From: Chloroflexota bacterium
GTDB taxonomy: Bacteria; Chloroflexota; Limnocylindria; P2-11E
Assembly: GCA_005889075.1 (NCBI GenBank)
Contig: VBDQ01000024.1
Coordinates: forward strand, 6,522-70,521
Direction: 5' to 3'
Length of the DNA: 64,000 nt
A program made the translations under genes and the position numbers. The notes beneath the pieces are model-generated. The model worked only from the letters and a program-made list of their open reading frames with translations. It ran no database searches and had not been told where the DNA came from. Of this stretch, positions 31,759 to 32,868 are shown one piece after another; position 1 is the first letter of the stretch; every line of letters begins with the position of its first letter.

Positions 31759-32322
31759 ATGCCCCACAAGGATCCTGAGCGACGTCGCGCCTATGCTCGC
31801 GATTGGATTCGTCACAATCCGGATAAAGCCCGCGCCGCGATGCGACGGTGGCGGGAACGACATCCGACGGAACACAACGAAGATTCGCGCGCCTACTACG
31901 CTCGCCATCGCGAGGCGCTTGCGAAGTACTTCTCGGAGTATCAGCGGACCCACCGCGACCTGAGGCGCGCTCTCGCGGCTCGGCGGCGAGCCCGTAAGGT
32001 CGCAGCGGCCGGACGATACTCGGTGGCGCAATGGCATGCGCTCGCCAGGTTTTGGCTTGGTCGCTGCGCTTATTGCGGGAGCGAGGGACCGCTCGAGGCA
32101 GACCATCGTGTCCCTCTCGCTAGAGGCGGGTCCAATCTGATCGATAACATCCTGCCCGCATGCGGGCCTTGCAATCGTCGCAAGTACGCGATGACCGAAG
32201 CAGAGTTTCTCGAGCGCCTGCGCCGCGACGGGCACCGCGTCCGTCCGCGCCTACGTCCGGGGCTGTGTCCGAAGCACGAGAAACACCAGAGCGGCGATGA
32301 GCAAGATGGGGAGCATGCTTAG
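31759..32322 (+). CDS. HNH endonuclease (phage-like)
   Basis: ATG at 31759. C-terminal CAYCG...EADHRVPLARGG...DNILPACGPCNRRK is an HNH/zinc-finger motif. The N-terminus carries repeated RRAY..(D/H)..(N/H)P.K basic repeats seen in phage HNH proteins. The region looks less GC-rich than its neighbours. Confidence 0.8.
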   Translation: MPHKDPERRRAYARDWIRHNPDKARAAMRRWRERHPTEHNEDSRAYYARHREALAKYFSEYQRTHRDLRRALAARRRARKVAAAGRYSVAQWHALARFWLGRCAYCGSEGPLEADHRVPLARGGSNLIDNILPACGPCNRRKYAMTEAEFLERLRRDGHRVRPRLRPGLCPKHEKHQSGDEQDGEHA

Positions 32323-32868
32323 CAATACCGGGCCGACCGTCTGGAGCGGGCCGTTCGCGTTCTCGTACCTGAGATTCACTTTTTGCGGATGCGTGGCGTT
32401 GTAGTCGAGCACCGCCTTCGCGAAGACCTCGTCCGGCTGTGGGACCGTCGTTCGCTCGCGCGACCCACTCGCGAGCTCGAGAGTCCCCTGCTCTCCAGCG
32501 ATCGTCACGGAAACGACGCGGCCCGCCTGCACGTCCTGGATCGCCGCGCTCATGGGGACGGTAAACACCGAGGGCGTCTGCGATCGGTACGCATAGAGCA
32601 GCATCAAACCGAGCACGACGAACACGAGAACGAGCGCCAGAGTTTGCGCTCCGCGCAGCGCATCGGGTCTACGCGAAGCGCTCACCGGAGGGACCGCGAT
32701 CTCGCCCGACTCCCGGAACCCTACGCACCGGCATGGCGCGCCGCCGACCTCGCGGTAACAGGGACGCTCGATACCTGGCTCTGCCCCGAGAAGTGGGCGC
32801 GCCGCGGCTCGATCGTGCCACCGCCGTGTGTGACCGCAGACCTCACAGATCGCGCGCATATCGAGCAC
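32251..32868 (-). CDS. Cys-rich (zinc-ribbon-like) N-terminal domain fused to an FtsH N-terminal module (TM1-extracytoplasmic domain-TM2); no AAA/protease part
   Basis: 205 aa, starting at GTG 32868 or ATG 32859. Residues about 87-191 align with FtsH residues 4-109 from this window at roughly 60 percent identity by eye. The N-terminus has CEVCGH..WH...C..C.C. Confidence 0.7.
   Translation of the reverse strand: MLDMRAICEVCGHTRRWHDRAAARPLLGAEPGIERPCYREVGGAPCRCVGFRESGEIAVPPVSASRRPDALRGAQTLALVLVFVVLGLMLLYAYRSQTPSVFTVPMSAAIQDVQAGRVVSVTIAGEQGTLELASGSRERTTVPQPDEVFAKAVLDYNATHPQKVNLRYENANGPLQTVGPVLLSMLPILLIAALVFLVLRTQPRT
32296..32610 (-). repeat. diverged inverted duplicate of the ftsH 5' coding region (partner 34420..34737)
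   Basis: Protein-level alignment [42 protein letters not shown]. The nucleotide similarity is also visible. Confidence 0.7.

Follow-up and report, generated by a model that had tools for sequence, protein, structure and literature searches.

A Gene Near ftsH Encodes the FtsH Membrane Module behind a Cys/His Domain

The DNA analyzed here, a 64,000-nt stretch of contig VBDQ01000024.1 (the window), contains a gene for a headless FtsH-module protein, for which we use the name H. Bacteria and organelles universally possess FtsH, an essential AAA+ protease anchored in the membrane, and a complete ftsH gene lies close to H, with a tRNA(CAU) gene and tilS between the two related segments, as the original prediction for this DNA had noted (Table 1). 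The open reading frame (ORF) at 32251-32868 (-) described in that prediction was present and encodes 205 amino acids, and every residue string that had been quoted for it was found in H. The protein starts with a domain containing conserved Cys and His residues, followed by a variable linker, a first transmembrane (TM) segment (TM1), an extracytoplasmic domain and a second segment (TM2), and its C-terminus lies 5-6 residues beyond TM2. The basic residues flanking the TM pair, together with the Cys-rich domain, suggest a topology with the N-terminus inside, the extracytoplasmic domain outside and the C-terminus inside.

When H was compared by BLASTP with the neighboring FtsH (ORF 34411..36288 +), which is encoded 1.5 kb away on the opposite strand, H residues 84-200 aligned with FtsH residues 1-118, with 74 of 118 positions identical (63%) and an E value of 2e-47. 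The proposed homology to the N-terminal module of FtsH, at about 60% identity, depended on the significance of this alignment and is borne out far beyond chance. In a codon alignment of the two modules in the window, nucleotide identity was 64.5%, the proportion of synonymous differences (pS) was 0.60, and the ratio of nonsynonymous to synonymous substitution rates (dN/dS) was 0.27. A model of H made with AlphaFold2 (AF2) using 112 homologues had a predicted local distance difference test score (pLDDT) of 80-95 over residues 70-200, where two TM helices, the first of them long, flanked an alpha/beta domain. Using this model, the top Foldseek matches in the PDB were the N-domains of FtsH (for E. 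coli 4v0b, the target TM-score was 0.84 and the root-mean-square deviation 1.7 Å). There were further matches to 2muy, the FtsH-HflKC complex 7wi3 and T. maritima 4m8a, and then to plastid FtsHi (8xkv, 8xqw and 8xks). The Pfam model PF06480 (FtsH_ext) gave H 23.6 bits (E 6.4e-5), against a gathering score of 25.5. The genuine FtsH next to H obtained only 24.5 bits, so this model is weak for the Limnocylindria-type clade; a precomputed PF06480 match was present in most H orthologues. H belongs to the FtsH_ext superfamily by homology, a placement that comes from BLASTP and the fold and is independent of the Pfam score.

Pfam searches found AAA, AAA_lid_3 and Peptidase_M41 only in the neighboring protein, with no match to AAA or Peptidase_M41 in H, and the FtsH model TIGR01241 gave H 14.6 bits against a cut-off of 600. 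These results, and the fact that H ends just past TM2, agree with the earlier statement that the AAA and protease domains are lacking. As it has neither the AAA ATPase nor the zinc protease, H cannot be a protease. These comparisons of sequence and predicted fold establish H as a paralogue of the N-terminal membrane/extracytoplasmic module of FtsH (TM1, FtsH_ext and TM2); it originated when only the 5' end of ftsH was duplicated.

Table 1. Features of the H-ftsH region (positions are those of the window)
Feature	Position	Strand	Evidence
H gene, GTG start	32251..32868	-	205-aa ORF; 212 homologues; purifying selection
Cys/His domain of H, N-terminal, predicted cytoplasmic (residues 1-55)	32704..32868	-	Ligand conservation; dN/dS
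Variable linker of H (residues 56-75)	32644..32703	-	Unconserved in alignments A1 and A2; dN up to 1.1; pLDDT <50
TM1 of H (about residues 76-94), closing in an invariant junction	32587..32643	-	AF2 helix 70-97; aligns with FtsH TM1
FtsH_ext-type alpha/beta extracytoplasmic domain of H (about residues 95-176)	32341..32586	-	pLDDT 80-95; Foldseek; PF06480
TM2 of H (about residues 177-199), followed by basic tail and stop	32272..32340	-	AF2 helix 174-200; aligns with FtsH TM2
TM1-extracytoplasmic domain-TM2 module within ftsH, paralogue of the H module	34387..34764	+	BLASTP, 63% identity; codon alignment
ftsH (AAA + M41 protease), proposed true start CTG at 34360, shared in part with the tilS stop TGA	34360..36288	+	Pfam; conserved upstream N-terminus
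tilS (tRNA-Ile lysidine synthetase); its end overlaps the start of ftsH, which follows	32975..34363	+	Pfam ATP_bind_3, TilS_C, TilS
tRNA(CAU), between the two modules, one base before the listed tilS ORF	32898..32973	+	ARAGORN; position kept in 18 loci
HNH endonuclease gene, convergent with H, conserved neighbor	31681..32322	+	Pfam HNH, 7.7e-10; synteny
Second tRNA(CAU), directly before the HNH gene	31606-31678	+	Initiator hallmarks: C1-A72 mismatch, GGG/CCC anticodon stem
Unannotated 48-50-aa single-TM protein, directly downstream of ftsH	36349-36501	+	65-92% identical in L003 and L043

The N-Terminal Domain of H Has Seven Invariant Cys and His Residues

The 55-residue N-domain of H contains RAIC-x2-CGH-x3-WHDR ... 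ERPCYREVGGAPCRCGGFR, giving a pattern of potential ligands C8-x2-C11-G-H13-x4-H18 ... C37-x8-C46-x-C48, after which comes x-GF. All seven of these residues (C8, C11, H13, H18, C37, C46 and C48) were invariant in 112 homologues. A Cys-rich N-terminus had been predicted for H; a fused domain of this kind, on what would be the cytoplasmic side, was indeed found, but the true pattern is more specific than had been stated and includes H13 and H18.

Scans of the N-domain alone and of whole H against Pfam and NCBIfam gave nothing beyond the weak FtsH_ext match, and NF038206 (RGCVC small proteins) reached 15.1 bits (E 0.017; cut-off 35 bits) over residues 6-24 only. AF2 confidence for the domain was low (pLDDT 44-76 within H, and 65 when the domain alone was modeled with 31 sequences), and Foldseek found no fold match to the N-domain model in the PDB. 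A profile of the N-domain run against 1.84 billion representative proteins gave 17 matches, of which the strongest 13 (E up to 2.5e-8) were members of the H family or fragments of them and the other four were weak (E 7e-5 to 3e-4). Two of the weak matches, P0132 (63 amino acids) and P0133 (55 amino acids), were stand-alone mini-proteins sharing all seven ligands and the GF motif with the N-domain of H, and outside the H family the domain was detected, weakly, only in these two. They are encoded at L047 2022-2213 and L048 641-808, on contigs too short for placement, and P0133 is a singleton. The remaining two, P0131 (a Cys-rich repeat protein) and P0134 (a repetitive protein), look unrelated.

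H Is a Conserved Gene of Limnocylindria-Type Chloroflexota

A homologue search with H returned 212 proteins, nearly all of 203-217 amino acids, full-length and 46-72% identical to it, and those carrying names came from metagenome-assembled genomes (MAGs) labeled "Chloroflexi bacterium" or "Candidatus Limnocylindria." A genome scan yielded 37 H loci, all in Chloroflexi/Limnocylindria MAGs except for one "Bathyarchaeia" contig; the hosts of H, which are soil Chloroflexota, are known here from metagenome assemblies only. An identical contig was also found in JGI samples 3300026342 and 3300026536. Between H orthologues, dN/dS ranged from 0.03 to 0.23 in the N-domain and from 0.13 to 0.44 in the module, with the linker free to vary. 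The original prediction had allowed that H might be a truncated remnant with no orthologues; with more than 200 orthologues under purifying selection, H is instead a functional, conserved gene that is lineage-specific to Limnocylindria-type Chloroflexota.

The single exception in the genome scan, L012 (DASPWX010000062.1), is labeled "Candidatus Bathyarchaeia archaeon," but the genes adjacent to its H are 72-94% identical to their counterparts in Chloroflexi loci, so that this contig is probably misbinned. A few aberrant forms of H were also encountered. One protein, P0122, is identical to the H of the window through residue 79, after which the module is deleted (AQTLAL joined to RTQPRT) and the stop read through, while P0007 and P0130 have a frameshift or a read-through. 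Assembly errors, or degraded alleles that are rare, may account for these three.

The Modules of H and FtsH Match Lineage by Lineage

In 21 genomes having both genes, we compared the module of about 125 amino acids from H with that from FtsH. The H module was 52-81% identical to the FtsH module of its own genome, compared with means of 47-62% to foreign H and 45-66% to foreign FtsH. For the H of the window the corresponding figures were 61.6% to its own FtsH module, 50.8% to the best foreign H and 52.0% to the best foreign FtsH, and its relatives in L043 and L044 were alike, with 57-71% identity to the FtsH modules of their own lineage and no more than 56% to anything else. In neighbor-joining (NJ) trees, the H modules were monophyletic in 0 of 200 and 0 of 150 bootstraps, whereas clades uniting the H and FtsH of one lineage had 48-90% support. 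Lineage-specific insertions and deletions (indels) were also common to both paralogues, i.e., a two-residue "TG/SG" in one clade, a one-residue insertion in a second clade and "SGSV" in JGI049. Had H and FtsH diverged independently after one ancient duplication, H would be equidistant from every FtsH. This was not observed, and the results show that H and FtsH modules are matched by lineage.

At the DNA level, synonymous sites were mostly saturated between the H and ftsH modules (pS 0.40-0.64). Identical synonymous codons were above baseline in several adjacent pairs (0.73 versus 0.59 in OBJ1, 0.69 versus 0.59 in CF64, 0.66 versus 0.53 in SOY29 and 0.64 versus 0.55 in U4527), an excess with p = 0.015 by the Wilcoxon test for genomes that are not phylogenetically independent. 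It was absent from the pair in the window (0.52 versus a baseline of 0.52). A permutation test of identical runs, aimed at recent tracts of conversion, was significant only in JGI049/U4566 (a 40-nt run, p 0.003-0.004) and was marginal for the window (17 nt, p 0.055). In one clade of five genomes, the conserved gene order around ftsH is present without H, and H is relocated to another conserved site, flanked by genes for a DPBB/RlpA-like protein and an aldo-keto reductase (AKR), an arrangement that we refer to as DPBB-H-AKR. These five relocated copies had neither excess similarity to the FtsH of their own genome nor an excess of identical synonymous codons. The shared indels, the partial signal in DNA and the loss of the effect after relocation point to episodic gene conversion (non-reciprocal recombination) that depends on proximity, and this is the likely cause of the matching; co-evolution of the proteins explains the same three observations less well.

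In the genome of the window, conversion is ancient and no longer active, since copies with 64.5% nucleotide identity are too diverged to recombine now. The inverted repeat that had been proposed for the two segments holds at the level of protein, but not of DNA: the longest identical run was 17 nt, and a repeat search gave no more than a single 20-nt arm at 85% (I14). Recombination between the copies with inversion of the intervening DNA, for which a check had been proposed, does not fit with this divergence or with the orientation of the genes, H being divergent from tilS-ftsH in the same way in 18 of 18 fetched loci that hold both H and ftsH.

One locus, L019 (SMAG_U4585), showed a different pattern. 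In its H, the two-residue insertion typical of the clade is retained and identity to the H of CF64 is 88%, whereas its syntenic FtsH module is without the insertion and unusually diverged, with no other FtsH module exceeding 70% identity to it. Replacement or rapid evolution of the extracytoplasmic domain of FtsH, and not of H, is suggested by this pattern.

A Second Family of Headless FtsH Modules Is Present in the Same Class

An ORF at L042 5929-6456 (+), from the MAG CF_147, encodes a protein of 175 amino acids with FtsH_ext (35.5 bits) followed by a C-terminal SHOCT domain (PF09851; 33.2 bits). It has at least 129 homologues of 159-253 amino acids, one of them annotated "SHOCT domain-containing protein [Chloroflexi bacterium]." As with H, these are headless copies of the FtsH N-module from the same bacterial class, and the CF147 copy resembles the FtsH of its own genome, with an insertion in the extracytoplasmic domain at the same site. 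They differ from H in their added domain, which is SHOCT at the C-terminus and not Cys/His at the N-terminus, and in occupying another locus, and they form a separate, equally uncharacterized family; Pfam detected no SHOCT domain (PF09851) in H.

H May Be an Accessory Subunit of FtsH

We favor, with a probability of roughly 0.4, the reading that H associates with FtsH as an accessory or modulatory subunit and that its Cys/His domain is a sensor of metal or redox state. The FtsH hexamer has 12 TM helices and a periplasmic ring, and a gap of 20-30 Å under the membrane admits substrates laterally (PMC7949044). Because H keeps the module that forms the hexameric membrane and extracytoplasmic ring of FtsH, it would most likely join FtsH rings, or dock on them, through this shared part. 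This would put its N-domain at the entry site of substrates, in the 20-30 Å space that separates the membrane from the AAA ring, and there, if sensitive to metal or redox state, the domain could tune the activity of FtsH or the access of its substrates; alternatively, H itself might be degraded by FtsH once its N-domain loses metal. Co-assembly with FtsH, or titration of it, is a reasonable suggestion from the sequences, and the TM2 sequences of H and FtsH (...GGFFFYMMR in FtsH) are nearly the same in most lineages. Truncated paralogues reduced to an oligomerization domain and working through heteromers have precedents in H-NST (PMC7074111) and in the microProteins (PMC9638782).

Several observations weigh against this reading. 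In the lineage of the window, both TM helices of H have drifted from the near-invariant helices of FtsH, which could weaken co-assembly. Relocated H does not track its own FtsH, so that the matching looks like a by-product of proximity and not of selection for compatibility. In many genomes, including that of the window, the signal of conversion in DNA is weak or saturated, and the trees are NJ trees of about 125 residues from genomes that are phylogenetically non-independent. Finally, metal binding by the N-domain is suggested by the ligand pattern, with AF2 confidence being low.

The strongest rival, possible although on balance we think it unlikely, is that H is autonomous, i.e., that the module serves only as a homo-hexameric membrane scaffold or as an extracytoplasmic sensor, that there is no contact with FtsH, and that conversion has kept the two similar passively. 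The drift of the TM helices in the window lineage fits with this, as do the DPBB-H-AKR genomes, where the excess similarity to FtsH has gone yet the gene is intact and conserved. The FtsH_ext-SHOCT family (at least 129 members) also shows the module being reused as a portable part. An autonomous homo-oligomer would account less easily for the near-identity of TM2 to that of FtsH in most lineages, which is easier to explain by packing in the same ring, or for the position of H beside ftsH, which is both ancestral and the most common.

If H were instead a substrate of regulated proteolysis, its Cys/His domain would sequester a partner (a sigma factor or another regulator) until FtsH destroyed H on a signal. 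An anti-sigma-like role had been raised in the original prediction, and the layout is indeed alike, with a putatively metal-binding, predicted cytoplasmic domain at the N-terminus, an anchor in the membrane and a domain outside the cytoplasm; a free cytoplasmic tail of about 75 residues would, to judge from the general biology of FtsH, be a suitable place for degradation to start. We consider this improbable, however. There was no match to zf-HC2/ZAS (PF13490) or any other anti-sigma family at E <= 1, the motif CxxCGHxxxxH is not the HxxxCxxC of ZAS, H has two TM segments rather than one, and its folded cytoplasmic part is only about 55 residues. No gene for a sigma factor or regulator was a conserved neighbor of H in either of its genomic contexts.

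A further idea is that H is a decoy, i.e., a copy of the extracytoplasmic part of FtsH without the motor that soaks up toxins or phages exploiting FtsH, its likeness being maintained by conversion. Import of nuclease bacteriocins in proteobacteria does require FtsH (pyocin G), H tracks FtsH by lineage, and sequence change is faster in the extracytoplasmic domain of H than in that of FtsH (H copies are about 70% identical in comparisons where the FtsH copies are 90-98% identical). We regard this as very improbable: a decoy leaves unexplained why conservation is highest in the Cys/His domain, dN/dS in the module (0.13-0.44) gives no sign of an arms race, and H of the relocated clade does not track FtsH. 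H had no match in PADLOC-DB at E <= 0.1, the adjacent HNH protein gave generic HNH matches only, and no toxin or immunity genes were found nearby.

Finally, that H is a decaying remnant of the partial duplication, or half of an invertible switch exchanging FtsH N-termini, might be suspected from the inverted orientation around tRNA-tilS and from the few damaged database variants (frameshifted P0007 and module-deleted P0122), but can be dismissed as highly improbable given more than 200 intact orthologues with dN/dS well below 1, 64.5% nucleotide identity with no identical run longer than 17 nt, a single orientation in 18 of 18 loci, and no chimera of the Cys/His domain with full-length FtsH among the 1.84 billion representatives. 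On these grounds we rejected a pseudogene, an invertible switch, an anti-sigma factor and a defence gene as identities for H.

Returning to the accessory subunit of FtsH, a more elaborate version would make H a membrane "microProtein" that enters FtsH hexamers via its N-module, giving rings with fewer motors and with a metal/redox switch at the substrate gate, its compatibility with FtsH being kept by conversion. Together with FtsH_ext-SHOCT it would belong to a Limnocylindria set of FtsH modulators derived from paralogues. The whole of this scheme we hold to be doubtful.

Comparison with Known Systems

FtsH itself (TIGR01241; PF06480 + PF00004 + PF01434) shares with H the homologous TM1-extracytoplasmic domain-TM2 unit and the same predicted fold, but has in addition a linker, the AAA ATPase and the zinc protease, and has no N-terminal Cys/His domain. 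The plastid FtsHi and Ycf2-FtsHi proteins are, like H, FtsH paralogues without proteolytic function, and FtsHi proteins form hetero-hexamers with their relatives; they retain the AAA domain and an inactive protease domain, whereas H retains the membrane module only. The closest analogy for how H might act is with H-NST of E. coli and the eukaryotic microProteins, in which a small protein likewise corresponds to the oligomerization part of a larger relative. These are unrelated to H and soluble, their heteromers are established whereas those of H are putative, and H has an additional conserved domain. As for the concerted evolution, nearby inverted paralogues evolving in concert by gene conversion are familiar from tufA and tufB in enterobacteria. 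As in that case, H and ftsH are closer within a lineage than orthologues are between lineages, but the case of H concerns just a portion of a gene, joins partners unlike in architecture, and has had conversion that was episodic and ancient, not ongoing.

The original prediction knew of no described family with this architecture, and we found none in Pfam, NCBIfam or the literature; neither the literature nor the family libraries gave a description of the Cys/His domain or of concerted evolution with ftsH, and all three appear to be undescribed. The concerted evolution, the conservation of the family and the FtsH_ext-SHOCT proteins go beyond what had been predicted. The locus offers a clear natural example, in bacteria, of a full gene and a partial paralogue evolving in concert over the long term in a manner dependent on their proximity, and it defines a small Cys/His domain that is almost unknown elsewhere. 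If H does act on FtsH, a conserved partner built from the assembly module of FtsH itself would represent a new regulatory principle; the known partners of FtsH that act at the membrane (HflK/C, YccA and SpoVM) are unrelated to it. The interest is limited by the purely metagenomic origin of the hosts and by a function of H that we infer.

The Start Codon of ftsH and Other Features of the Locus

In 28 of 28 ftsH loci (e.g., L003, L017 and L029), the first ATG, GTG or TTG is reached only after a conserved N-terminus of FtsH, which begins with L or T and takes in half of TM1. The codon preceding the conserved NLDNR is CTG in one group of loci and ACG in another. In CF11, U4527 and CF129, the CTG comes right after an in-frame TAG stop, and in both groups a purine-rich, Shine-Dalgarno-like stretch is found a few codons upstream of the CTG or ACG. 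From these features, ftsH seems to have a non-canonical start codon. Gene callers choose an internal GTG or ATG, with the result that TM1 of FtsH is truncated, and this amounts to a systematic annotation error in the class. As the N-terminus of FtsH extends upstream of the listed GTG, the homology between H and FtsH covers the whole of TM1.

The conserved backbone of the locus runs from genes for a substrate-binding protein, a beta-lactamase-like protein and a DivIC/FtsL-like protein through an initiator-type tRNA(CAU), HNH and H, with a second HNH gene between H and tilS in some genomes, and continues with tRNA(CAU), tilS, ftsH, the 48-50-amino acid TM protein, LigT and DUF4395. Over its last 72 nt, the HNH gene runs antisense to the TM2-coding 3' end of H, and an overlap of 72-96 nt is also present in L003, L043 and L045. 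A scan of 31400-34500 for promoters and terminators gave no promoter-like site and one terminator-like site, below chance expectation. The best E. coli matches of the tRNA(CAU) at 32898-32973 are annotated as tRNA-Ile, so this is probably tRNA-Ile2, the substrate of TilS. The putative tRNA-Ile2 gene would thus lie directly upstream of the gene for its own modifying enzyme, tilS, and of ftsH.

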